DNA from: a virus
Taxonomy: Duplodnaviria > Heunggongvirae > Uroviricota > Caudoviricetes
IMG/VR virus record: IMGVR_UViG_2654587736_000008
Reading direction: 5' to 3' (one strand)
Length of the DNA stretch: 42,353 nucleotides
The notes below the pieces were generated by a model that had not been told where the DNA came from, ran no database searches, and was given only the letters and a program-made list of their open reading frames with translations. Positions 484-32,584 of the stretch are shown here, piece by piece. Position 1 is the stretch's first letter; every line of letters starts with the position of its first letter. The position numbers were made by a program, and so were the translations under genes.

Positions 484-714
484 TCAGGCTTGCCACATCC
501 CACGCGCGCGGATCAAAACCGCCCCACCACGCATATTCATTCGCTTGCCATGCCCGAACATTTCAATCCAGCGATATTCTGCCTGGGTGTGTTCACGCGC
601 AATGAAGAACGTACAACCGGCTATCGCTCCGTAAGCCCAGTTTCCGGTAAAAAGACCAACCAGTATCTGCGCAGCCACAGCACAAAGTGCATGAAGTAAG
701 GGGCTTATATCCAT
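484..714 (-). CDS. Small membrane protein, hypothetical (76 aa)
   Basis: ORF with strong SD (AAAGGAGG) 6 nt upstream of ATG at 714; hydrophobic segment LLHALCAVAAQILVGLFTGNWAYGAIAGCTFFIA; last gene of the tail-fibre operon. Confidence 0.5.
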   Translation of the reverse strand: MDISPLLHALCAVAAQILVGLFTGNWAYGAIAGCTFFIAREHTQAEYRWIEMFGHGKRMNMRGGAVLIRARGMWQA

Positions 715-726
715 TATTTCCTCCTT

Positions 727-1005
727 TCAGCTCCATTCCCGAAGCGGTGTTTCCAGCTCCACGACATAATCAGAGAATACAGAAACATCAAACAAGTCAT
801 CAAGAATGCGAATGTTGACAAAATAACCGTCATTCCGGACACAGACAGGTTCTCCCTCTTCTGTTACCCCTGTTTCTGTGTAGGTGAAACCAATTTCATC
901 GACTAACAGTTTATTCTGGAGGTCTTCATCCTCCTCCCAGTCAAGAGATGACAGGAAGGCCTTAAACTGCAGTTTGTCATGAAACTTCAAAGTTAAATCT
1001 TTCAT
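727..1005 (-). CDS. Hypothetical acidic protein, possible tail-fibre assembly/chaperone partner (92 aa)
   Basis: ATG overlaps the stop of the tail-fibre ORF (ATGA); acidic composition; no recognisable Tfa motif. Confidence 0.45.
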   Translation of the reverse strand: MKDLTLKFHDKLQFKAFLSSLDWEEDEDLQNKLLVDEIGFTYTETGVTEEGEPVCVRNDGYFVNIRILDDLFDVSVFSDYVVELETPLREWS

Positions 1006-2330
1006 ACGACCTCTTTTAATTGCCTGTCATTTAATTCTTTATGCCATATGCGGAAATTGCGAATATGGCCAAACAGATGTCGTTCTCCAGTATTCGTCTG
1101 CCCTCCAAATCGGATATTTTTATCAGCGGTCACACCATTATATTCACAATAAACTTCATTAACCGCTTTACCATTTGTCACCACATGAAAGTGACCATCA
1201 GCTTTTGCAATACATCCAAATGTGGTTTTCTCTGCAAATACATCTGTCGCTGCGCTATTAACATACAAGCCTGAAGGGTTTGACAGACTCATATATAACT
1301 TACCACTACCTCTGTTGATTGCTGCAATTGCTGATTGCCCGGTATTGGCTGCTGCTATATCCCACACGCGGGGTGCGGCGTTTGGTGCAATATCCCAGTT
1401 TTTATGAATCTCAAGTAAAAAAGTAAATGGTAACTTATAAAGATTATTTCTGGTGGGGATACTAACCAAATCACTGGCTCTTGTCGTTGCGCTGCCTCCT
1501 GAAATAATAAATGATGATACACACGGCCCATTCTCTACTTGTGGGGTGGCAAGATAAATATAGTCACCAGATACTGTTGCCCCACCCTGCTCAGGAGAAT
1601 ACTGTATCTGAGAGCCTATTTTTAACTCACCATCAATTGCCTGAATCGTTGCCTCTGCAAAAATCCAGCCCGTGGTCTTATCCTTCCTGACTCGTGCCGT
1701 AATTCTGCCGGCAGCACCACCTGTCATATTAATTTCAAGCGTTTGCGTATCAATGTACGCATCGCCAAGAAAAGTTGTTGCACTACCATCATACTTATCA
1801 AACCGTATACGTAACCTTACCTGTCGTTCTGTTTTAAAACGGCATGAGGTTGTCACGTACTTGTTATCGCCTGAGACATCAACTGACTTTGTTGCAGCAA
1901 TTGATGCCATATTAATAGCCGAAGTTTGCCCAACCAGAGAATCGTTGCAGACAAACTTTCCATAAGTAAAACCAAAACTATCCGTCCCGGTTTCGGGCAC
2001 ATCCATGTTTGATGACTTCCCCCAGCTGGCTGGACTTTCCGAATTGAGCATGTAGTTCGTTCTTTGTCCCTCAATAAGCAGGCCATCACACTCAAATCGC
2101 GGCTCATTAATTTCCGCCGTTTTCAGTTCGCCAGATTTGTTGATATATGTTGCCGTTGATGCGCGACTGAAATTAACCTGTTTATCACTGGCGACCTGAA
2201 CCACATCGTCACCAATAGCTATTTTTTTATAGCCCGGAGAAAAACCCGCAATCATATCCAGTGAATCGTTAAACGGTATCCACACATCAGGCAGCGGCGG
2301 CACTATATTCGCATAGGGCTCTGCAGTCAC
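1002..2330 (-). CDS. Side tail fibre protein, C-terminal receptor-binding portion (frame separated from N-terminal part by a -1 frameshift)
   Basis: 442-aa ORF; the same frame is open upstream to about 2502 and encodes an Ala/Thr/Lys-rich continuation of the Stf-like shaft. Confidence 0.7.
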   Translation of the reverse strand: MTAEPYANIVPPLPDVWIPFNDSLDMIAGFSPGYKKIAIGDDVVQVASDKQVNFSRASTATYINKSGELKTAEINEPRFECDGLLIEGQRTNYMLNSESPASWGKSSNMDVPETGTDSFGFTYGKFVCNDSLVGQTSAINMASIAATKSVDVSGDNKYVTTSCRFKTERQVRLRIRFDKYDGSATTFLGDAYIDTQTLEINMTGGAAGRITARVRKDKTTGWIFAEATIQAIDGELKIGSQIQYSPEQGGATVSGDYIYLATPQVENGPCVSSFIISGGSATTRASDLVSIPTRNNLYKLPFTFLLEIHKNWDIAPNAAPRVWDIAAANTGQSAIAAINRGSGKLYMSLSNPSGLYVNSAATDVFAEKTTFGCIAKADGHFHVVTNGKAVNEVYCEYNGVTADKNIRFGGQTNTGERHLFGHIRNFRIWHKELNDRQLKEVV

Positions 2331-3061
2331 TTCCGCTGCGGCTTCTGCGCGGTCTGCCGCCTTTTCAGCTCGTGTCGCTGCCGACAGAGCCTCATCCTTT
2401 TTCTGCCCGGCCTTTGTTGCGTCTGCTGCAGCCTCCCGCGCTTTTGTGGTGGCGACTCCGGCATTTTCAGCGGCTGACTCTGCATTACGGCGGGAAGCTC
2501 TTCACTGTCTGCGGAGGCTTCTTCTGACGCACGGGCATTTGTCTCTGAACGTTCTGCCGCTGTTGCTGCGTTTTGTGCGGCTGTTTTTGAAGAAGCTGCC
2601 GCTTTCGCGCTGTTACCTGCATTCGTCTCTGATGTTTTCGCCGCGTTCCTGGACGATGCCGCTGCTGTTTCTGATTTCTTTGCTGCCGCTGCGCTCTGAG
2701 AGGCGGCTTCAGCGTTGCGTGCCACATCCTCCACCATTACCTCAAAACGACGCAATGCCTCCGGCATGACATCCTCTTCCGTCATGGCACCCAGAAAATC
2801 ATTCAGCGTCCCCGGCTTAGAATCCTCATACACGGTGATGGTCCCGGCATGTGAAGGCGGAAAACCTTCAACCAGCAGGATAACGCTGTACTGGCCATAC
2901 TCGACATCCATGCTGTAACGTCCGGCTTCATCCGGATTTTCTGAGGCCACCGTGTTCACCACCACCGTGCTGCTGGTCCGTCTGGCCTTCAGCACAATGG
3001 TGCAGTTCTGTACTGGTTTTCCTGTGCCATCTTTAAGCACGCCAGAAATTTTTACTGTCAT
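2327..3061 (-). CDS. stf: Side tail fibre protein, N-terminal portion (lambda Stf-like); reading frame breaks near 2495-2505
   Basis: N-terminus MTVKISGVLKDGTGKPVQNCTIVLKARR...GRYSMDVEYGQYSV closely resembles lambda Stf; the last ~60 residues of this ORF are basic low-complexity, consistent with out-of-frame translation. Confidence 0.7.
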   Translation of the reverse strand: MTVKISGVLKDGTGKPVQNCTIVLKARRTSSTVVVNTVASENPDEAGRYSMDVEYGQYSVILLVEGFPPSHAGTITVYEDSKPGTLNDFLGAMTEEDVMPEALRRFEVMVEDVARNAEAASQSAAAAKKSETAAASSRNAAKTSETNAGNSAKAAASSKTAAQNAATAAERSETNARASEEASADSEELPAVMQSQPLKMPESPPQKRGRLQQTQQRPGRKRMRLCRQRHELKRRQTAQKPQRK

Positions 3062-3075
3062 ACTTTTCCACCAAT

Positions 3076-3106
3076 AAAAAAAGCCCGCAGCAGTGACGCC
3101 ACGGGC
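3076..3106 (-). terminator. Terminator-like hairpin between lom and stf
   Basis: On minus strand GCCCG...CGGGC followed by TTTTTTT; the loop is long, so only moderate confidence. Confidence 0.35.
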
Positions 3107-3212
3107 TTCAGGACAGTGTAACTTTACGTTTCCTCAAACGCAGTTCACTCCATAAGGCGGATGAACCTGCGTATCATAACAATATTTACAGAAGATAAAT
3201 CGGCGTCTGTTG

Positions 3213-3812
3213 TCAGAAACGGTATCCGATACCAACAATAAATGCATCCGTTCGCCAGTCGCCACTACCGGAACCTTCATAAGCAAGGTCAATGGTCACG
3301 GATTCGGTCGGGTTAAACTGCACGCCAGCCCCCCACGCCAGAGACGTGTTGCTGTGGCGACCGTCATCACTTCCGGTCAGCACATCGTGCGTTTTCCCCT
3401 TGTTGTCAGTTACGCGGAGATAATCCCCGGAGAAAGTCGACACACGGCTGTAAGCCACACCCGCCATCGAATACGCGCTGAACCATTCATTCACGCGTAC
3501 AGACGGCCCCGCCATCACGCTGAACCAGCGGTTACGCACGGAATCTTCATGCCAGCGGGTATCGCTGTAGTGCGTTTTTTGCTCATCCTCAGCATTGGCA
3601 TAACTGAAGGACGTAATCAGCCCCAGCGCGTCCGTAAACTCATAACGGTATTTCACGTTAATCCCGTTCAGATTATCGCTGCCGGGAGCGTTCGTACGGG
3701 CATGAAGATACCCCGCGCTCAGTGTGGACTGATGTTCAGACGCCCATGCAGGCGCACCGGATACGGACAGACAGATGGCTGCGGACAAAATGACTGCACA
3801 AACTTTACGCAT
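3213..3812 (-). CDS. lom: Lom outer-membrane protein (Ail/Lom/PagC family)
   Basis: 199 aa; signal peptide then SEHQSTLSAGYLHA...GINVKYRYEF...GIGYRF, near-identical in pattern to lambda Lom. Confidence 0.9.
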   Translation of the reverse strand: MRKVCAVILSAAICLSVSGAPAWASEHQSTLSAGYLHARTNAPGSDNLNGINVKYRYEFTDALGLITSFSYANAEDEQKTHYSDTRWHEDSVRNRWFSVMAGPSVRVNEWFSAYSMAGVAYSRVSTFSGDYLRVTDNKGKTHDVLTGSDDGRHSNTSLAWGAGVQFNPTESVTIDLAYEGSGSGDWRTDAFIVGIGYRF

Positions 3813-3833
3813 AATTACCTCTCGCTTTTCTGC

Positions 3834-3860
3834 AATAAAAAAGGCGCCATTTCTGGCGCC
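3834..3860 (-). terminator. Intrinsic terminator downstream of J
   Basis: Minus strand: 7-bp stem GGCGCCA-GAAA-TGGCGCC followed by TTTTTTATT. Confidence 0.6.
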
Positions 3861-3879
3861 CGTATATGGGTTATAAAAT

Positions 3880-6800
3880 TCAGCTGATACTGATGCCTGC
3901 GGTGGCTTTCTTCATCACCACAACCAGCAAATCGCTGATACTTGCTGTGGGATACCAGTTATTCACCAGCCATGCTGACACCGAAAACTCCAGCGTCATG
4001 TGGCCGCGACCAGCTGGCATATCAATAACACCACTGTAAATCAGCGTATTATCCAGCGCGGTACGGTTATAAATTTCAGCACCGTTTTTCCGTACTATCA
4101 GGCGGCATGACGAATAAATATCGTTATTCTCCCGCTCATGTTTAGCGCCGCTGAATGCCACCGCCGGAATAACAATCTGCCGGTCAAACGGCTGATCGTC
4201 ATAAACCCTGACGGTGATGGTCCCTGATGGCCACCGTTCCGGTGCACGGGAGTCCCGGGGGAAAGCTTTGCCCACTGTTTTAACGAGATCGCCTTCAATC
4301 TGGTTGGCGGACAATTTTCCCAGAACCCGACAGTTCTCGTTAATCGTGACGTTGTTGAGCGTCCCGGAGTTCGCATTCACGTTACCGCTGATATCGGCAT
4401 TTTTCGCCGTCAGCCGCCCGTCCGGTGTCAGGGAAAATGCCGGAGGATTACCGCCGCTGGTAATGGTCGGAGCCGTCAGGCGTTTCAGGAACACGTCGTT
4501 CATGAATATCTGATCGCCCTGACCAACAAACATCGGCTTTGTGTTGCCATTCGCAGGATTAATCATCGCAATCCGGTCAGCAGCCAGAAGCACCTGACTC
4601 TGCATACCTGCTGGCGTATTCTCAATACCGGCTCCGATACCCGCAATATAAAGGCGTCCGTCCTTCATCTGCTGCAGTTTCACGGCCCACATGCTGTTCA
4701 GGTTATTATTTGTATCAACCTGAACTTTCTGTATCTGCTGGATTGCCGCACTCTGGTCTTCCAGTTTTTTATTGACGGTCTGCGTGATTTCATTGCTGAC
4801 ATTCGTAATGGACGTCCTGATTTCAGCCAGGTCCGGCGCAAGCTGACCGTTATCAATCTGCGTCCACAACTCCTGGGCCAGATGTGTTTTCCCGATTTCT
4901 CCTTTGAAAAAATCCAGGTAACCTTCCGCATCATCGCTCGCCCGACCGACAGCCTCCACGAATGCCGATTTGCCAACGGTGTTCACACTGCGAACGTAAA
5001 AATAATAATCATGGCCCGGTTTGATATTGATACTGGCGGCTATCCAGTACAGCGCCGTACCAAGATAGCGGGCTGTGGTTTCAACCTGCCTGATATCGGT
5101 AATCCGCTTTTCCGAGAACCAGAACTCAAACTGTACCGTCGGGTCATAAACAGCAAGATGCGGCGTGGCGGTTATCTGAAAATAGCCCGGCGTCAGCTCA
5201 ATCCTCGACGGTGCTGCCGGTGCGGCAATCCGGAACGATACCGACGCCGGATCGCCCTGCTGCCCCCGGGCATTTACCGCCCGGACTGTCAGCCTGTAGT
5301 TCCCCAGCGCCAGTTGCGTGAAGCGGTATGTGGTTTCCGTCGTCCGGGCCGTGCTGACCAGTCGCTCACTGCCGTCGTCCGCTGTTACGGTCAGACGGAG
5401 CAGGAAGCTCACGCCCTTCACCACCTTCGGTGTGTCCCATCGCGCCAGCACCTGATATTCCCCGCTGTCTGCAGTGACTTCGGCGGTCAGGTGCTGCACT
5501 GCTGGCGGCGTGACACCATTCACCGTGCCGCTCTGGTCACCGTCAAAGTGCGCCCCGTTATCCACGATGGCTTCTTTCTCCGGTACATGCTGCACGGCGG
5601 TGATGGCATACGTGCCGTCATCGTTCTCACGGATACTCACGCAGCGGAACAGGCGCTGGCGCAGCGTCGGCAGCTTCAGCCCCCACACGCTGTATTCTGC
5701 AACGCCGTCAGGAACACGGCTCACTTTCACCTTCACGCCGTCGGTGACGGACTGGACCTCCACGCTGACCGGATTACCCTGACCGTCAACCAGGCTTATC
5801 AGCGTGGTACCGGAGGATGGCAGCGTGATTTCACGGTCGAGCGTCAGCGTCCGGGTCTGGCTGTTCACCGCCAGCACGCGACCACCGGTGCTGATACCGG
5901 CATAGTCATCATCGCAGATTTCAATGACATCGCCCGGTACATGGCGAAGCCCTTCAGCACCCACGCTGAAATCCACGGTCTGCGTCTCCAGCAGTTCCGT
6001 TTTAATCAGCCACAGCCCGGCGCGGTGTGCCTGCCCCCGGCTGGTACAGCCAAAGGCATCCATCTTCGTGACGTTACGACCGTAACGGGCAATGGCCTGC
6101 GTGTCCTCCACAAGCTCTGTTGCCGTTTCCCAGCCGTTATCCGGGTCAGTCCAGTTCACCTCAACGGCATTATGGCGGTCCTTCAGGGCGCTGAAACTGT
6201 AGCGGAACGGCGCGCCATCATCCGGCATCACCACATTACTGCGGTTATAGGTCCACACCTTATCTGATGGTCGGTCCTGCACGAACGTCAGCGTCTGCCC
6301 GTTCCATACCGGCATACAGCGCATCGCCGAGCAGAAATCACTGAGCACATCCCACGCCTTGCGCTGTGTGGTCAGGTAAGCGTTACAGGTGATGCGCGGC
6401 TCCGTGCCGCCAAAGCCGTCCGGCACCGACTGGTCGCAATTCTGGCCGATGACATACAGCGCCCATTTATCCACATCCGCCGCACCAAGACGTTTCCCCA
6501 TGCCGTAGCGCGGATGGGTCAGCATATCCCACAGACACCAGGCCATGTTGTTGCTGTATGCCGGTTTTAACGTTCCGTCCCAGATACCGCTGTATTGCCG
6601 CGTCTGCGGGTTATAGTTCGACGGCACCTGCAGAATGCGCCCGCGAAGATGATAATTACGGCTCACCTGCTGGCTGCCGAACTGCTCCGAGTCCACCTGC
6701 ACGCCAACCAGTGCCGTGTTCGGGTAGCACTGTTTCACATCGATGATTTCGGTGTATGACGACCAGAGCGTTTTGTTCTGCAGCTGGTCTGTGGTGCTGT

Positions 6801-25211: not shown

Positions 25212-25427
25212 TTACTCTCCCCGTGCAGCCTTACGCTTGTCTTCTTTAATCTTGAAATAAAGGTTTGTCAGATACGTCAGCAAGCCAAATACCAGACTAC
25301 CCAGCACACCTATTGCCGCCCACTGTGAGGGCGTGACTTTATCGAGCAACTGTAAAAACCAGTACCCGGCACTACCTGCTGAGGTGCCATAGGCGACACC
25401 CGTTGTTAACTTATCCATGGATTTCAT
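25212..25427 (-). CDS. S: Pinholin, phage 21 S-like (class II holin) with dual-start motif
   Basis: [29 protein letters not shown]...[22 protein letters not shown]; two Met codons (M1, M4) as in S21 holin/antiholin. Confidence 0.85.
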
Positions 25428-25462
25428 AACCCCACCTCGCAGATGCGGGTGCTGTGTAATGG

Positions 25463-25488
25463 AAATAAAAAGGCCACCTGACGTGGCC
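25463..25488 (-). terminator. Intrinsic terminator between methyltransferase gene and holin
   Basis: Minus strand GGCCAC-GTCAG-GTGGCC followed by TTTTTATTT. Confidence 0.65.
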
Positions 25489-25494
25489 ACCAGA

Positions 25495-26547
25495 TTATTT
25501 CCCCACCAGCTCGTTTATCTCTTTCACTGTCTGGTTAAACCGCTCTGACTCAAGCTCAACACCTAAGGCCCGACGCCCCAGCGCCATTGCTGCTTTTATT
25601 GTGGAACCGGATCCCATAAAAAAATCAGCAACCAGATCACCTGGTCGACTACTGGCATTGATTATTTGCCTGAGCATATCCGCCGGTTTCTCACACGGAT
25701 GTTTCCCCGGGTAGAACTGAACGGGTTTATGCATCCAGACATCGGTATAAGGCACGGAGACTGATACGGAGAAATAGCGCCGGAGAGATTTAAACTCATC
25801 CAGCAATTCAGAATATTTGCGATTCAGTGAATCATAAGATGCCACCAGCTGGTGGTGTGGTTGTTCCAGTTGTTGTTCCTGAAACTTCTCTGCCGCTATA
25901 CGGGAAAACAGTGCCTGTAACTTCCGATAGTCAGCCTCATTCGGCAACTGCCACTGACTGGCACCAAACCAGTGGGAAACCATATTTTTCTTACCTGTGG
26001 CTTCGGCAATTTGTTTTGCCGTTATACCCAGTTCGGCACGAGCATCCCTGAAATACGAAATCAGCGGTGCCATTATGTGCTGTTTGAGTTCCCTTTCTTT
26101 TGCCGCATAGCCGTCACTTTTGCCGCGATATGGCCCCTGGTAATGTTCAGCAAACAGAACGCGCTCTGTGGCAGGAAAATATGCACGCAGACTTTCTTTA
26201 TTACACCCATTCCAACGTCCGGACGGCTTCGCCCAGATGATATGGTTAAGCACGTTGAAACGTTCACGCATCATGATCTCAATATCAGATGCCAGGCGAT
26301 GCCCACAGAACAGGTAAAGGCTTCCGGCAGGTTTTAACACCCGCCAGAACTGGGCCAGACAGTGGTCCAGCCACTTAAGGTAATCTTCGTCCCCTTTCCA
26401 CTGATTGTCCCAGCCGTTGGGTTTCACCTTGAAGTACGGCGGATCGGTAACAATCAGGTCAATGGAATCATCAGGCAGGGACTGAATAAAATGCAGGCAA
26501 TCAGCGTTGATTAAATCAACACTGTTTATTTTTACAGTATTTTTCAT
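25495..26547 (-). CDS. DNA N6-adenine methyltransferase, beta-class (DPPY before FxGxG), orphan
   Basis: 350 aa; motif IV VTDPPYF near the N-terminus and SAM-binding DFFMGSGST near the C-terminus; no adjacent restriction gene. Confidence 0.8.
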
Positions 26548-27023: not shown

Positions 27024-27046
27024 AAAAAAAACCGCTCAGCGGCGGG
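27024..27046 (-). terminator. Intrinsic terminator (candidate tR'-like)
   Basis: Minus strand CCGCTGAGCGG hairpin followed by eight T. Confidence 0.5.
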
Positions 27047-27079
27047 TTTAAGTTGTGTGGCGAAGTAACCACTCTTAAC

Positions 27080-27107
27080 AGCATATTTGATTTTTTACGA
27101 TTGTAAA
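27080..27107 (-). promoter_or_regulatory. Candidate sigma70 promoter on the late strand (possible PR'-like), about 45 nt upstream of the terminator
   Basis: Minus strand TTTACA-N16-TATGCT. Confidence 0.3.
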
Positions 27108-27172: not shown

Positions 27173-27619
27173 ATGAATAAAATGACTGTACTATTACTTA
27201 GCGCAACTATCATTTCAGGTTGTACTTCTTCCGTACCATTGATAAAGAAAACTCAATCAGGAAAACCTGAGGGGGTTTATCAAAATACGACAAAAGATAA
27301 AGTCAAAGATGCCCTTGTGAATTACTGCAATAGTAGAGGGTTGATAATTTACAACGCGGATAACAGCAGTGTTATATGTGGTAAAGAACTGGAAGGCGGC
27401 TCTGCTGTTTTTGGACAAATGTTAATCGGAAATGCCTATTCAACAACCCCGGTATCAAAAGTCAGATTTACTATCGCTCAAGTTAATAACGATACAAAAG
27501 TGTGGGCCGATATGTGGATGGAAACTCAAATGGCAATGGGGCAAGTACAACAAATGGCTATAACAGACAACGCAAGCAAAAACACTATCCAACAACGTCT
27601 TGATGAATTAAAACCTTAA
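27173..27619 (+). CDS. Lipoprotein, hypothetical (moron on opposite strand)
   Basis: 148 aa; signal peptide with lipobox LLSATIISGC; gene and flanks are AT-rich; opposite strand to Q and the late genes. Confidence 0.7.
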   Translation: MNKMTVLLLSATIISGCTSSVPLIKKTQSGKPEGVYQNTTKDKVKDALVNYCNSRGLIIYNADNSSVICGKELEGGSAVFGQMLIGNAYSTTPVSKVRFTIAQVNNDTKVWADMWMETQMAMGQVQQMAITDNASKNTIQQRLDELKP

Positions 27620-27703: not shown

Positions 27704-28069
27704 CTAACGATCCATCTCTAGCTCAATTTCTAACATCATTAACATGCCATCAACTACACCTTCAGCCTTTTGCAATAAACGCCCAACCCAGCAATCAGAA
27801 CGCCCATGTTTACGGGCAAGCGCCATAAACGTCATACCACCTACATAATAATCCACTAATAAATCGTGCAAATCGCTGTTGTTCTTTTTCAGGCGAGCCA
27901 TGCACCCACAAATGATCATCGCGTCATCGTCACAACATTGCGGGCGGGATTTTACTTTTGAAGGGATTAGTCCTTTAAATCCTGCAGCAATAGACGACCA
28001 GGTGACATCCTCGTGATTATTTGCCACCCATGCCCCCCAACGTTCAAGAACCATTTGAATATCACGCAT
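27704..28069 (-). CDS. quuD: Late-gene antiterminator Q (phage 21 / QuuD-type)
   Basis: [14 protein letters not shown]...[18 protein letters not shown]...[11 protein letters not shown], as remembered for DLP12 QuuD; ATG 28069 with SD GGAG (ORF track begins at a TTG 28084). Confidence 0.8.
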
Positions 28070-28086
28070 CAACTTTCTCCACAAAA

Positions 28087-29082
28087 TCAGGCCAGCACGC
28101 CAATTGCCAGCGCACGATCGATAAAACGAAATATCAGCTCCAGTTGGGAGCCATACTTCTCTTCAAATGCCACGGTATCCGCATGCAGCTCGTCGTGATG
28201 CTTTCTGCACAAAGGCAACACAAAAAGGTCATGCGCTTTTGTTCCCATTCCACCCTGACCGTGACCTATCAGGTGGTGGGGATCATCAGCAGGCTTTCCA
28301 CAACATGCACACGGCTGTGTCTTAACCCAGCGCGTGTACTTTTCATTAACCCAGCGGCGACGTTTTGGGCGTAACATAAAAGACTCCGGCGACTCTGGAT
28401 CCACTTTCAGCGCCAGCACCTTTTTCGCTTTATCCTGGATGATGCTGGTGGCAGGAACCGAAGGCACAAGGTCACTTTCCCGGGTGACAGACGGCACAAC
28501 AGGCTTCGGTAATCTCAGTGCCTTACGGGCTGCACTTTCCGGTAAGGCATCCGCCAGGTCATTACGAATCAGCCACCAGCACAGTTCCGGCATTGTCACA
28601 ACGTGACTGTCATCAAAACCGAGATCCCGACGCACAACAGACAACACCCAGCGGGTACAGTTATCCGTTGCCATTGATTCCAGCCGTTCCGTGAACTGAT
28701 CGCGCAGCTGGTTATCGCAGTGCCAGCACAGACGGATTGCGCCCGGCGTGTGTCGCATTGTGGTCATGTTCTCGCTGTGCCAGTCGGAATGAGGCCACTG
28801 GCAACCTTTTTCACGAAGTAACCAGCGTTCAAGACATTCCACTCCACCAGCACGACGGATCACTGCCTCATTGCGGAACACGGCCCGAACGGCAGGATCA
28901 TCCGCCAGCGGTTGTGATGCCGCCGGAACGGCACCACTGGCGAAAGATGAATAACGTTCCGGCTCAGGCTCCAGCAGAACACGCCCCTGCATAAACAGGG
29001 GCATCAGCTCTGAACCTGGCCTGAACAATACGATCCCCATACGCGGGGCAATTTCAGGGGTCAGTAGTGCTCTCACGGTCAC
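28087..29082 (-). CDS. DUF968 family protein (HNH-like Cys/His C-terminal motif)
   Basis: 331 aa; C-terminal [21 protein letters not shown]...CRKHHDELH; start uncertain (GTG 29082 or downstream ATG). Confidence 0.65.
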
Positions 29083-29083
29083 C

Positions 29084-29893
29084 TCAATGAACGGTATCGA
29101 GCAGCTTTAACAGCTCAGGGAACCGGGATTCGAAGAAATGCGGCTGCGTCTCGCGCGGATTTGCAGGACTGGTGATGTTCTTGCCGAACATGCAGCCTTT
29201 CGCCGTCAGCGACCAGAATTTTTTGATGTTGTTAATCGCGGTACGGCTGTATCGTTCGCGTTGTTCAACGATCCCCAGCTTCACCATCTGGTGATATGCC
29301 TGATTAGCCGTCAGGCGGATACCATACTGCTTCAGCAGTGCACTCAGCGACAGCGTGGGGCGACTTGAGCCATCAGGCGCGTCAGCAGGAGCATCAATGG
29401 CATAGCGCGGTGCCAGATTCGGTAAGCCAACAGCCTCCTGAAGCTTCTGACAGGCTCCAAGCACTGATGAGTTAGACAGATTTAATTCCCGGCGCATAAA
29501 GTCCAGCAGGATCACGCCAGCCTGCATCTTGTCAGCAGCCTGTCCGGATAATTTTTCCGGTGCGCTGGTTACCATGTCGAAAGTACGGATCACCTTCAGA
29601 TGGAATGACGGGCTGATCCACATTGCATAGGCATACACCAGTTCTTTGCAGACATACGTCCCCTGGTTATTTCCGCCATTAATGACGCTAACTGGTTGAT
29701 TTTGTTCCAGAGGCGGAATTCCACCCTCGGTGAAAAGTTGTTCAATCAATTCACAGGTTTGCTTATTGGAGAGCCAGTATTTCGGGCGGTTTTTTTGTTC
29801 TCCCCCGGCAGCCCTGTGCAGATCGTTCAGGCTGTAACGCCCATAAGCATCACGACGAACTTCAATACCATCAATGACCATCAGATTATTCAT
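29084..29893 (-). CDS. KilA-N domain protein
   Basis: Start MNNLMVIDGIEVRRDAYGRYSLNDLHRAAG (SD AGAGGAGAA); KilA-N-like N-terminal domain. Confidence 0.7.
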   Translation of the reverse strand: MNNLMVIDGIEVRRDAYGRYSLNDLHRAAGGEQKNRPKYWLSNKQTCELIEQLFTEGGIPPLEQNQPVSVINGGNNQGTYVCKELVYAYAMWISPSFHLKVIRTFDMVTSAPEKLSGQAADKMQAGVILLDFMRRELNLSNSSVLGACQKLQEAVGLPNLAPRYAIDAPADAPDGSSRPTLSLSALLKQYGIRLTANQAYHQMVKLGIVEQRERYSRTAINNIKKFWSLTAKGCMFGKNITSPANPRETQPHFFESRFPELLKLLDTVH

Positions 29894-29912
29894 ACTTCGT
29901 TTCTCCTCTTGA

Positions 29913-30302
29913 TCAGGCGGCTGCACCCGCCGTTTTCTCGTACTTACTGATGGTGATCTCGACCTTCCCTTTCGGGATAACCGGTCCCCACTCCACCAGC
30001 ATTCTTTTCACCTGTCTGTCGTCTTCCCACACACCCGCGTGGGTCAACGCGTCAAACAGCGCCTTGTTATAGTTGTCCAGATCGCGGATCCGGTTATCCG
30101 GAGGAAACAACACGATCTCCACTGCAGCAGGTGCCGACGTTGGTTTTGGCAGACGACGTAACTGCTCAACTATTGCTGCGCACGCCGCGCTCTGAAATTT
30201 TCGCCCCGCCGCGCTTATCAGGCTCTTACCAGCAAATGCCCCTTTGTTGGGGTGTCGCCAGTACGTGTTCACGCTGGGCGGGAAAGGCAGGATCAGCTTC
30301 AT
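29913..30302 (-). CDS. rusA: Holliday junction resolvase RusA
   Basis: 129 aa; LPFPPSVNTYWRH...RDLDNYNKALFDALTHAGVWEDD; ATG overlaps upstream stop (ATGA). Confidence 0.85.
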   Translation of the reverse strand: MKLILPFPPSVNTYWRHPNKGAFAGKSLISAAGRKFQSAACAAIVEQLRRLPKPTSAPAAVEIVLFPPDNRIRDLDNYNKALFDALTHAGVWEDDRQVKRMLVEWGPVIPKGKVEITISKYEKTAGAAA

Positions 30303-30625
30303 ACTTTCAGGCCTCTCTCATGTAACCAGTGGGTTGCACGCAGCCTGGCGTTTTCCTCACCGGCAAGCAGTGAGCGGATAATCCCGACCGCCTCGCTGTC
30401 GTCGTCCTTCACCGCGGTATGAAGAGTGATACCCCGGGCCACGCCACGCTTTATCGTGATGACGCCTTTTTTCTCCAGTGCGCGAAGATGTTCCACCGCT
30501 GCATTCACTGAACGGTATCCCAGCATGGTTGCCACCTCCTGATTGGTTGGCGGGAAGCCACGTTCTTTCTGATAAGAAATCAGCATATCCAGCACCTGCT
30601 GCTGGCATTGAGTTAACGTCGTCAT
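30299..30625 (-). CDS. LexA-type N-terminal DNA-binding-domain protein (no peptidase domain)
   Basis: 108 aa; LTQCQQQVLDMLISYQKERGFPPTNQEVATMLGYRSVNAAVEHLRALEKKGVI resembles the LexA wHTH; ATGA overlap with the upstream gene. Confidence 0.55.
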   Translation of the reverse strand: MTTLTQCQQQVLDMLISYQKERGFPPTNQEVATMLGYRSVNAAVEHLRALEKKGVITIKRGVARGITLHTAVKDDDSEAVGIIRSLLAGEENARLRATHWLHERGLKV

Positions 30626-31275
30626 GCCGCCATCTCCCTGAGCAGTTTTTCCGCCTGCTGGCGAACCTGCGCCAGAAACGCCTCACCACATGCCTCAAGT
30701 TCATCGCGCCCGATGTAGCTGATTGCCGGTCCCTTCCAGGTCTTGTCAAAAACAGCAATAGCACCAGCGAAGAAAGCTCCTGTCGGCACCTGCTTCTCGT
30801 CTTTCGGGATAAACCAGACAGGCAGTTCAAAACCAATACGCCCGCGAATAAAAGCAATATGATCTGCATCTTCCGGCCACCACACTTCGCTGGTGGCCGC
30901 TTTGATCAGGAAAACATAGCGCCCGCCCTTATCACGCATGACACTGGCATGTTTCATGATGTAACGCATGCCGGTGATGTATTGCCCCTCATGCTGACTG
31001 GCGCGGCTGTATGGGGGATTACCAAAGGCAGCACCTTTAAGCTCCGCAAGACGTTCTGACCAGTCATGCGCCAGCGCGTTATCTTCCGCCGTGTAATACG
31101 CGGCACATTTGGCGTTATCACCGTCAGTAAACAGATCCAGAACAAACGGGCCAAACAGGGTGTTAATTCCCCAGAAAATGTTGTCCGGCGTGCGCCACTG
31201 ATCGCCCACTTCCTTCAGTTCATGGGCTGGTTTGTTCCGCAGTTCCACCAGCGCCTGGCAATATTTATTACTCAT
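30622..31275 (-). CDS. Phage Dam-type DNA N6-adenine methyltransferase (NPPY family)
   Basis: Start MSNKYCQALVELRN at ATG 31275; FGNPPYS motif. Confidence 0.75.
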   Translation of the reverse strand: MSNKYCQALVELRNKPAHELKEVGDQWRTPDNIFWGINTLFGPFVLDLFTDGDNAKCAAYYTAEDNALAHDWSERLAELKGAAFGNPPYSRASQHEGQYITGMRYIMKHASVMRDKGGRYVFLIKAATSEVWWPEDADHIAFIRGRIGFELPVWFIPKDEKQVPTGAFFAGAIAVFDKTWKGPAISYIGRDELEACGEAFLAQVRQQAEKLLREMAA

Positions 31276-31763
31276 TAAGCCCCCACGTAATTCCCTGACA
31301 GATACCACTCTTCACCCGATGCAGCGCGCTTGCTGCTTTTCCGTAAGCACCGCTCACGACGCGCCAGAAAATTGTTTCGTTCTGGCTGGGAGTGGCTTTC
31401 ACGGAATGCCGCCATCCACACGGTTGCAGCACGACGGTATAAGCCCCTGGACTCCAGTTCTTCAGCCTGGCGGGTCAGGCACAAAATCACCCGTGGATCG
31501 TTAGTGCCGACATAGAAATTGCGCACAGGTCTGGTTTCTCGAACTGGTTGTGGTTCCGGTTCCTGCGCTCTCTCAGTCAGGCGCGGGAAATGTCTGCGTG
31601 TATCTCCTTCACAACGGTGAGCCACACGCCCACTCTGACGTAACTTGCTTGCTGACTGCAGAACGCGCTGCCGTGAGTAACCTGCAAAAGCATCCGCAAT
31701 GTCTCCGGAAGTACACCCCGGATGGGCTTCAATGAATTTCTGAACTTCATTCAAAAGACTCAT
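31275..31763 (-). CDS. PerC/Pch-like transcriptional regulator domain protein
   Basis: C-terminal AEELESRGLYRRAATVWMAAFRE...RRERCLRK resembles the PerC family signature; N-terminal ~90 aa unassigned. Confidence 0.5.
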   Translation of the reverse strand: MSLLNEVQKFIEAHPGCTSGDIADAFAGYSRQRVLQSASKLRQSGRVAHRCEGDTRRHFPRLTERAQEPEPQPVRETRPVRNFYVGTNDPRVILCLTRQAEELESRGLYRRAATVWMAAFRESHSQPERNNFLARRERCLRKSSKRAASGEEWYLSGNYVGA

Positions 31764-31765
31764 GA

Positions 31766-32584
31766 TCACCCCCTGAATCCTGCCGGGATCTGGCTGTAGT
31801 CCACGTTGTCGTAACTGGCTTTGAAGTACGGGTCCTCGCGTCTGGCTGCAGATACCGCAGGAACTTCCCAGGATTCTTCGAAATGACGATCCGGACCAAA
31901 GAACGTAACAGCCTGTTTCACAAATTGTGTGCCGCTGTTACCCATCGCAGATACCCAGCCCGCGTAGCGTTTCACACCTTCCAGCATGGTTTCGGGGTTT
32001 ACCCCCTCATTCAAACGGGCTTTCCAGGCTTTGAAGGCTGCAGATTTTGAATTGCCACCAGCACGTTTGGGATATACCAGCCATGCCTGCTCAAACTCCG
32101 GAGAGTATTCCGGTCGGTTTGAACGAACTCGCACGGACTCATCAACTGATGCACCAACAGCTATTGGTTCATTGACTGGTTCTTTGACTGGTTCAAAAGA
32201 GTGACTGGTTCTGGGTGAATCTCCTGCACTACCCCCTGGTGCAACTCCTGCACTACCTGGTGAATTTGCTGCACCAGATAGTGAATTATTTGCACTACCC
32301 CCTAGTGAATCTCCTGCACCATCCAGATGAAGGAGATAGATATTACTTGAGTTACCTTTTTCACCTTTCCGGGTGACTTTTTTTACCAGCCCGGACTCAC
32401 AAAGGGCCGCAATATGATTCATCACAGAACGTTTGCTAATCTCGCACTGGTCAGCAATATGCTGGTAGCTGGGCCAGCACTCCCCCTGATCGCTGGCATT
32501 ATCAGCCAGCTTGATCAGAACCAGTTTTCGCAATGGATTACCCACTCGAATTTTCATCGCTTTAACCATCAGCTCCATACTCAT
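31766..32584 (-). CDS. Replication initiator (O-like, N-terminal wHTH) containing the origin iterons
   Basis: 272 aa; N-terminal wHTH; Gly/Ser/Ala-rich central linker encoded by the DNA repeats; conserved C-terminal domain. Confidence 0.65.
   Translation of the reverse strand: MSMELMVKAMKIRVGNPLRKLVLIKLADNASDQGECWPSYQHIADQCEISKRSVMNHIAALCESGLVKKVTRKGEKGNSSNIYLLHLDGAGDSLGGSANNSLSGAANSPGSAGVAPGGSAGDSPRTSHSFEPVKEPVNEPIAVGASVDESVRVRSNRPEYSPEFEQAWLVYPKRAGGNSKSAAFKAWKARLNEGVNPETMLEGVKRYAGWVSAMGNSGTQFVKQAVTFFGPDRHFEESWEVPAVSAARREDPYFKASYDNVDYSQIPAGFRG
32165..32325. repeat. Iteron-like direct repeats (candidate ori) inside the initiator gene
   Basis: At least three copies of TGACTGGTTC followed by about five ~21-bp repeats with core TCCTGCAC(T/C)A. 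Confidence 0.6.

Follow-up and report, generated by a model that had tools for sequence, protein, structure and literature searches.

The presence of two separate adenine methyltransferase genes in one prophage, neither accompanied by a restriction enzyme, raises the question of what the second contributes that the first does not. The DNA concerned is IMG/VR virus record IMGVR_UViG_2654587736_000008, a Caudoviricetes sequence of 42,353 nucleotides (the window, meaning the whole stretch analysed), which is an Escherichia coli lambdoid prophage. One of the genes (30622-31275, minus strand) belongs to the phage N6-adenine methyltransferase family PF05869 / TIGR01712 and is located among genes of the early-right region; the other (25495-26547, minus strand) encodes a beta-class adenine methyltransferase and is located between the antiterminator gene Q and the lysis genes. 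An earlier reading, made from the letters of the DNA without database searches (the sequence-only reading), had proposed that the two enzymes provide staged protection against different host restriction systems. The explanation that we consider probable is that the prophage combines an ordinary early PF05869 enzyme of anti-restriction type with a late generalist resembling M.EcoGII.

The minus-strand open reading frame (ORF) that stops at 30622 can be translated from a GTG at 31308 (228 amino acids) or from an ATG at 31275 (217 amino acids). The shorter form corresponds exactly to the methyltransferase that the sequence-only reading had placed at 30622-31275, and is named 'phage N-6-adenine-methyltransferase' (WP_021551567) by RefSeq in an E. 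coli prophage with 99.6% identity to the window across its right-hand half; the prophage of strain 1290 (NZ_CP184007) is 99.6% identical over this half. Family membership was judged by whether the score of the whole protein exceeded the curated cut-offs of Pfam and NCBIfam, and both were passed: PF05869 ('Dam') matched with an E-value of 2.3e-45 and 154.7 bits (cut-off 28.1), and the NCBIfam equivalog TIGR01712 with an E-value of 1.7e-76 and 255.4 bits (cut-off 97.05), covering profile positions 1-165 of 165. A PADLOC type II methyltransferase model of 217 positions was also matched from end to end. PF05869 is the sole Pfam match of the 217-amino-acid protein at E <= 0.01, with no match to PF02086 or MT-A70. 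The ORF is an intact and ordinary member of PF05869 / TIGR01712.

Several RefSeq phage records, such as that of SfII_43 (NC_021857), label this gene 'phosphoadenosine phosphosulfate reductase'. The label is a mis-transfer from a family of fusions between phosphoadenosine phosphosulfate (PAPS) reductase and methyltransferase, because the protein matches only positions 283-490 of the 495-position PHROG profile phrog_33262.

The sequence-only reading had described a Dam-type enzyme with an NPPY motif, and had named disruption of the catalytic motif of either methyltransferase in an alignment as contrary to its proposal. The NPPY of the PF05869 protein is present as catalytic motif IV (N86-P-P-Y89, followed by S90, within the sequence GNPPYS) at 31009-31020 on the minus strand. 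Two alignments were examined, one (A1) of the window protein with orf32 of phage VT2-Sakai, T1 Dam and HP1 Dam, and one (A2) of 20 sequences, comprising the window protein and 19 diverse homologues with identities down to 33%, one of which is apparently frameshifted. Residues N86-P87-P88-Y89-S90, D47 and an N-terminal D25-x-W27-x-T29-P30 are invariant in A1. A2 has invariant D47, P88 and S90, and conservation reaches at least 90% at D25, W27, T29, N86, P87 and Y89; P30 does not figure among the residues listed. D47 (31135-31137, minus strand), the family-invariant acidic residue that ends the first beta strand (strand E44-50 of an AlphaFold2 model), is the likely equivalent of motif I, which binds S-adenosylmethionine (AdoMet). 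Because NPPYS and the other family-conserved residues are kept in both alignments, the catalytic motif is judged to be undisrupted, and the motifs of the beta-class enzyme, described below, are likewise intact.

The AlphaFold2 model, built from A2 (maf50760d8350; mean predicted local distance difference test score 92.5, predicted template modelling score 0.89), is a confident one and shows a single compact alpha/beta domain with no separate target-recognition domain (TRD). Motif I thus precedes motif IV within one compact domain that also carries the conserved N-terminal D-x-W-x-T-P, which is the arrangement of the PF05869 family. The classical Dam family, in which motif I, an inserted TRD and DPPY follow one another, was considered for this protein and ruled out, PF05869 being its only Pfam match and a TRD being absent from the model.

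The companion gene at 25495-26547, called beta-class by the sequence-only reading, encodes 350 amino acids that match PF01555 (N6_N4_Mtase) with an E-value of 2.2e-42. Its catalytic motif DPPY (D35-Y38; 26434-26445, minus strand) is N-terminal and its AdoMet-binding motif FMGSG (F310-G314; 25606-25620, minus strand) is C-terminal, with a central TRD between them; both motifs are conserved in M.EcoGII, and their order is that of the beta class and of M.EcoGII-like enzymes. The two enzymes of the prophage had been called unrelated, which is correct insofar as they belong to different Pfam families with opposite motif orders; both are nonetheless amino-methyltransferases with a (D/N)PPY motif.

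Identity extends over 281 of 349 residues (~81%) in the comparison of the beta-class enzyme with M.EcoGII, and over 310 of 348 (~89%) in that with the reconstructed ancestor Anc291; both comparison sequences were machine-read from a table in a supplementary PDF and contain a few reading errors. Phage cdtI (AB285204) has a gene 100% identical to that of the beta-class enzyme. For M.EcoGII, methylation of adenine is independent of DNA context (PMC5778455), and Anc291 and deeper ancestors kept activity on DNA and were largely non-site-specific (PMC11551740). Because the enzyme of the window is so similar to these two non-specific proteins, it falls inside a clade of experimentally established non-specificity and probably methylates adenine in any context.

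This placement bears directly on the proposal that the two enzymes have complementary site specificities, the early one shielding replicating genomes and the late one shielding packaged DNA from different restriction systems. The different classes, different operons, intact motifs and orphan status of the two enzymes all fit such a proposal, as does the general view of orphan phage methyltransferases as anti-restriction devices (PMC12707154). A late enzyme of the M.EcoGII/Anc291 clade would, however, include the site of the early enzyme among its own targets, and the notion of protection against different restriction systems is for this reason not supported. An induced prophage, moreover, already bears the methylation pattern of its host, so that early protection in the current host would be redundant, and close relatives with the late gene do without the early one. 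We therefore consider complementary site specificity unlikely. The overlap of targets is most likely an instance of the very result, both enzymes methylating the same site, that the sequence-only reading had itself named as contrary to its proposal; what it observed in the DNA is confirmed, and its interpretation is partly supported.

The part of the interpretation that stands concerns where the two genes are located. The window has tail and Lom genes at its left, terminase, lysis genes and Q in its middle, an immunity region at ~34.5-35.5 kb, and early-left genes to the right of the immunity region. From the cro-like gene, the minus strand encodes in succession YmfL, Rha/ASH, a small ORF, a helix-turn-helix protein of HTH_36/DnaD type, PerC/YfdN, the PF05869 methyltransferase, a protein consisting of a LexA DNA-binding domain (LexA-DBD), RusA, KilA-N, DUF968 and Q. 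The methyltransferase gene is packed tightly into this series: one base of its ATG at 31275 is also part of the yfdN stop codon TAA, and its own TGA runs into the start codon of the gene that follows (ATGA). It is translationally coupled to the genes on either side. The minus strand between 29800 and 34700 yielded no sigma-70-like promoter. Because the gene belongs to a same-strand run with overlapping start and stop codons, placed as the nin region is placed in lambda, its description by the sequence-only reading as nin-like and early is fair; it is located between a replication-type helix-turn-helix gene and Q, and its early expression is predicted from this position.

Among the genes of the early-right run, the HTH_36/DnaD-like replication gene occupies 31766-32584 on the minus strand. 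The PerC/YfdN-family gene directly upstream of the methyltransferase (31275-31769, minus strand) matches PF06069, has a weak match to the ANR family, and is annotated as yfdN in the 99.6%-identical prophage; PerC-type regulators are activators of virulence genes in pathogenic E. coli. Directly downstream, the LexA-DBD gene (30299-30625, minus strand) encodes 108 amino acids, with PF01726 over residues 1-65 and without the S24 peptidase domain of autocleavage, and is conserved in Stx2 and SfII phages and in a large number of E. coli prophages; a LexA-like binder of this uncleavable kind might target SOS boxes at induction. The nin-like block between the methyltransferase and Q (28087-30302) consists of minus-strand genes for RusA (29913-30302), KilA-N (29084-29926) and a DUF968/HNH-like protein (28087-29082). 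The Q-family antiterminator gene (27704-28084, minus strand), annotated as 'antiterminator Q family protein' in the 99.6%-identical prophage and matching PF06530 in syntenic loci, divides the early-right operon from the late one.

The beta-class gene is correctly assigned to the late region because it lies between Q and the holin gene, with a promoter/terminator pair upstream. This pair (27031-27107, minus strand), found by a consensus scan, comprises a candidate late promoter, TTTACA-16-TATGCT (27107-27080), and a GC stem with a T-run (27043-27031), a strong terminator-like hairpin ~40 nucleotides past the promoter-like site and between Q and the late genes; it resembles pR'/tR' of lambda and may function similarly. 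Just upstream of it lies an ORF of 148 amino acids in the opposite orientation (27173-27619, plus strand; phrog_3152), which is absent or replaced in some related prophages. The holin ORF (25212-25490, minus strand), the first gene of the lysis cassette, was recognized by PHROG holin families, with PF04971 matched in syntenic loci, and starts 4 nucleotides past the end of the beta-class gene. A homologous beta-class gene occupies the same slot after Q in the Stx2 phage Stx2a_1447, directly upstream of the tRNA genes and stx2. One gene in the nin operon and one between Q and holin agree with the sequence-only reading's assignment of one enzyme to the early and one to the late region; staging of their expression would follow from gene position.

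Both methyltransferases had also been described as orphans, and this too holds. No restriction-endonuclease domain was found by Pfam or PHROG in the neighbours of either gene, which are PerC, LexA-DBD, RusA and KilA-N for the early gene and a 75-amino-acid ORF and the holin for the late gene, and no restriction-enzyme model was matched in PADLOC. The DUF968/HNH-like gene, three genes downstream of the PF05869 gene, is not a cognate nuclease, because it is retained in prophages that lack the methyltransferase. A type II restriction-modification system is ruled out, there being no cognate restriction endonuclease gene adjoining.

The early gene is not a fixed component of this type of prophage. 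Ten distinct neighbourhoods of the beta-class gene were found among the matches listed, and eight of them have a PF05869 gene at the corresponding place (the 217-amino-acid form in seven, a 177-amino-acid allele in one); the other two have none. Alignment of these two prophages with the window (L010:5350-5480 and L012:5865-5995) revealed a clean difference of a single gene: GGGGGCTTAATGA is followed either by the 651-nucleotide body of the methyltransferase gene and a second ATGA, or at once by the LexA-DBD gene. Exactly 651 nucleotides between two ATGA overlaps are thus missing from the prophages without the methyltransferase, and the PerC/YfdN stop is joined to the LexA-DBD start. Because precisely this ORF is missing from two related prophages, the PF05869 gene is an optional, dispensable cassette, swapped at start/stop junctions in the manner typical of lambdoid mosaicism.

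Both genes are common in E. coli. Among 5,426 complete E. coli genomes, with presence defined as at least 80% coverage, the PF05869 gene was found in 1,725 (about a third) and the beta-class gene in 1,158. The 5.8-kb span that joins them was found in at most 523 genomes, an upper bound, since a genome missing one of the two genes could still attain 80% coverage. A public assembly collection has 22,622 blocks indexed for the exact beta-class protein. The exact allele of the PF05869 gene was found on only three contigs, one of which is CP007149.1, and a search for further contexts of the common allele P0020 gave two short contigs; 42 phage records match its protein at 95-99% identity. Both genes are annotated in Stx2a_1447, as 'DNA N-6-adenine-methyltransferase' (ORF17) and 'DNA methylase', and SfII is annotated with the PF05869 gene (dam, SfII_43) but not the beta-class gene. 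The pairing of the two enzymes is frequent in E. coli and was already known from deposited genomes of Shiga-toxin phages.

The explanations differ in what the early enzyme recognizes. T1 Dam and HP1 Dam, members of the same family, are GATC enzymes. In the multiple alignment the protein of the window is 30% identical to the VT2-Sakai protein (31% by pairwise BLASTP), 24% to T1 Dam and 26% to HP1 Dam, and relative to all three it has three insertions, of 5 and 10 residues flanking NPPYS and of 7 residues in the C-terminal half. VT2-Sakai orf32, as the PF05869 gene of its phage, is equated here with M.EcoVT2Dam, to which GATC specificity is attributed in the literature (PMC6602927, with reference to Radlinska and Bujnicki 2001). 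The PF05869 enzyme may accordingly be a Dam-like phage GATC methyltransferase that keeps fast-replicating phage DNA fully methylated for reasons other than evasion of restriction, and its benefit might then lie in avoiding nicking by MutH or in tuning phage gene expression, replication or the stability of lysogeny. This is a possibility that we entertain tentatively. It draws on the citation or annotation of all three relatives as GATC enzymes, on the location of VT2-Sakai orf32 in a nin region also, and on regulatory roles noted for orphan phage methyltransferases such as P1 Dmt (PMC12707154). Because of the low identity and the three insertions, however, the GATC motif cannot be transferred to the enzyme of the window, and the GATC sites of the window (149, observed/expected 0.72) show neither telling avoidance nor any significant cluster, so that GATC content is uninformative on specificity.

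The longest GATC-free stretch of the window (511-4194, 3.7 kb) covers the tail-fibre and lom region and may differ from the remainder in origin or base composition. It includes, at the left end of the window, minus-strand genes for a prophage tail-fibre N-terminal domain (2327-3061) and for an outer-membrane protein of the Lom/Ail family (3213-3812; PF06316, E-value 3e-126), which are typical lambdoid tail genes and morons.

Gene fusions provide a different indication of substrate. Domains 57-74% identical to the protein of the window are fused to complete C5-cytosine DNA methyltransferases of PF00145 (P0126, P0128 and P0133) or to PAPS-reductase domains of PF01507 (P0129 and P0143), and homologues as similar as 67-74% are among these fusions. 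Five other long homologues of 469-599 amino acids (P0138, P0144, P0153, P0162 and P0168) have C-terminal extensions of 250-380 amino acids that are unmatched. The fusions with C5-methyltransferases fit a DNA-modifying, anti-restriction role.

A sequence search of the PDB found no solved structure close to the protein, and no PF05869 member appears to be represented among PDB structures. A Foldseek search of the PDB with the AlphaFold2 model returned only distant class I methyltransferases, the highest ranking being CAPAM/PCIF1 (E ~1e-4, template modelling (TM) score 0.45-0.52), eukaryotic mRNA cap-specific adenosine N6-methyltransferases that outrank every bacterial DNA methyltransferase in the search. 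These matches would suit an enzyme that acts on RNA, or that requires a nucleic-acid-binding partner such as the coupled LexA-DBD protein, and that regulates prophage induction rather than modifying DNA. There is a precedent in the M.EcoPA8orf6770P-PNB-2 enzyme of Shiga-toxin (Stx) prophages, annotated as a 'DNA adenine methyltransferase', which prefers 16S rRNA when bound to a winged-helix partner (PMC10810198), and in the window the stop of the methyltransferase overlaps the start of a winged-helix (LexA-DBD) gene. The precedent comes, however, from another family (MT-A70, DPPW) and another part of the prophage, and no MT-A70 match was found here; prophages missing the methyltransferase keep the LexA-DBD gene unaltered; DNA is the substrate of those PF05869 members that have been characterised; fusion with C5-cytosine DNA methyltransferases is seen among homologues; and the fold matches are weak. 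Action on RNA or through such a partner is therefore very improbable in our judgement, and we would give only a slender chance to the broader idea of a PF05869 sub-family with a new specificity or substrate (RNA, or DNA by way of LexA-DBD) that serves to regulate prophage induction and not GATC-directed anti-restriction, which if true would parallel the Stx-prophage rRNA methyltransferase. Identity of the PF05869 gene with the Stx-prophage 16S rRNA enzyme itself was rejected, that enzyme being an MT-A70 protein with DPPW encoded in the left arm of its prophage, and the protein of the window having NPPY and no MT-A70 match. Hia5, Hin1523 and Nme1821 were also rejected as non-specific members of PF05869, being alpha-class enzymes related to Dam, DpnM and T4 Dam.

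Under the explanation that we favour, of an early PF05869 enzyme followed by a late M.EcoGII-like generalist, the PF05869 gene would be silent in the lysogen and, judging from its position, would be transcribed after induction or infection along with the replication and nin genes, starting at the early-right promoter. Its product would most probably make N6-methyladenine at a short motif in replicating phage DNA, and in host DNA also. The beta-class gene, immediately ahead of holin, would come first among the sizeable genes that are transcribed late under the control of Q. Its product would most probably methylate adenines almost regardless of context not long before packaging, and the exported DNA would thereby become resistant to many N6-methyladenine-sensitive restriction enzymes of the next host. 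That orphan phage methyltransferases, silent in the lysogen, counter restriction is an established view (PMC12707154; PMC5778455), and M.EcoGI and M.EcoGII are reportedly unexpressed in lysogens and harmful when expressed (PMC5778455). The division of labour between the two enzymes is more likely to be one of timing and extent: the early enzyme would methylate specific sites while the genome replicates, and the late one would methylate wholesale before packaging. A non-defensive early enzyme, with a Dam-like housekeeping or regulatory function, is an alternative.

Several considerations weigh against this explanation. Exported DNA gains little further protection from the early enzyme if the late one methylates all adenines, and two related prophages do without the PF05869 gene. 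The early enzyme is only 24-31% identical to the GATC-specific enzymes, with three insertions, so that a GATC motif cannot be assumed for it, and its best structural matches, weak as they are, are RNA cap adenosine methyltransferases. The Stx-prophage enzyme is a case of an annotated DNA adenine methyltransferase that prefers 16S rRNA in the company of a partner protein. Finally, no expression, activity or methylome data for the PF05869 sub-family of the window were found in the accessible literature.

Beyond correct annotation the significance of the locus is small, both genes being common and already named in lambdoid and Shiga-toxin prophages of E. coli. An item of some value would be the recognition motif of a PF05869 sub-family that about one in three complete E. 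coli genomes contain, and the locus raises the question of what an early site-specific enzyme adds beside a late non-specific one. The Stx-prophage 16S rRNA case shows that annotations as DNA adenine methyltransferase of this kind can mislead.

Comparison with known systems places both enzymes among familiar relatives. WP_021551567, SfII dam, ORF17 of Stx2a_1447 and the corresponding genes of Stx2c phages are 97-99% identical to the PF05869 gene of the window and have the same flanks, with PerC/YfdN upstream and LexA-DBD, RusA, KilA-N, DUF968 and Q downstream, and no difference of substance. M.EcoVT2Dam (VT2-Sakai orf32), T1 Dam and HP1 Dam share with it membership in PF05869 / TIGR01712, a small single domain with NPPYS, D47 and D-x-W-x-T-P, and orphan status, and VT2-Sakai orf32 shares also its location in the nin region of a lambdoid phage; they differ in that GATC is documented for them, whereas the sub-family of the window stands apart by its divergence and its insertions. 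E. coli Dam, T4 Dam and Hia5 (alpha class, PF02086) are likewise N6-adenine DNA methyltransferases with (D/N)PPY, of which phage-borne forms are used against restriction; they differ in belonging to PF02086, with another motif order and a separate TRD, and the protein of the window has no PF02086 match. M.EcoPA8orf6770P-PNB-2 resembles the early gene in being prophage-borne, annotated as a DNA adenine methyltransferase and co-transcribed with a winged-helix protein gene, but it is an MT-A70 enzyme with DPPW, encoded near the left end of its prophage, and has no family-level homology to the gene of the window. M.EcoGII and M.EcoGI, from prophages of E. coli O104:H4, resemble the late enzyme in the order of DPPY, central TRD and FxGxG, in their prophage setting and in full-length identity of ~81%; ~19% of the residues of the window's enzyme differ from M.EcoGII, and the activity of this allele is a prediction from that likeness.

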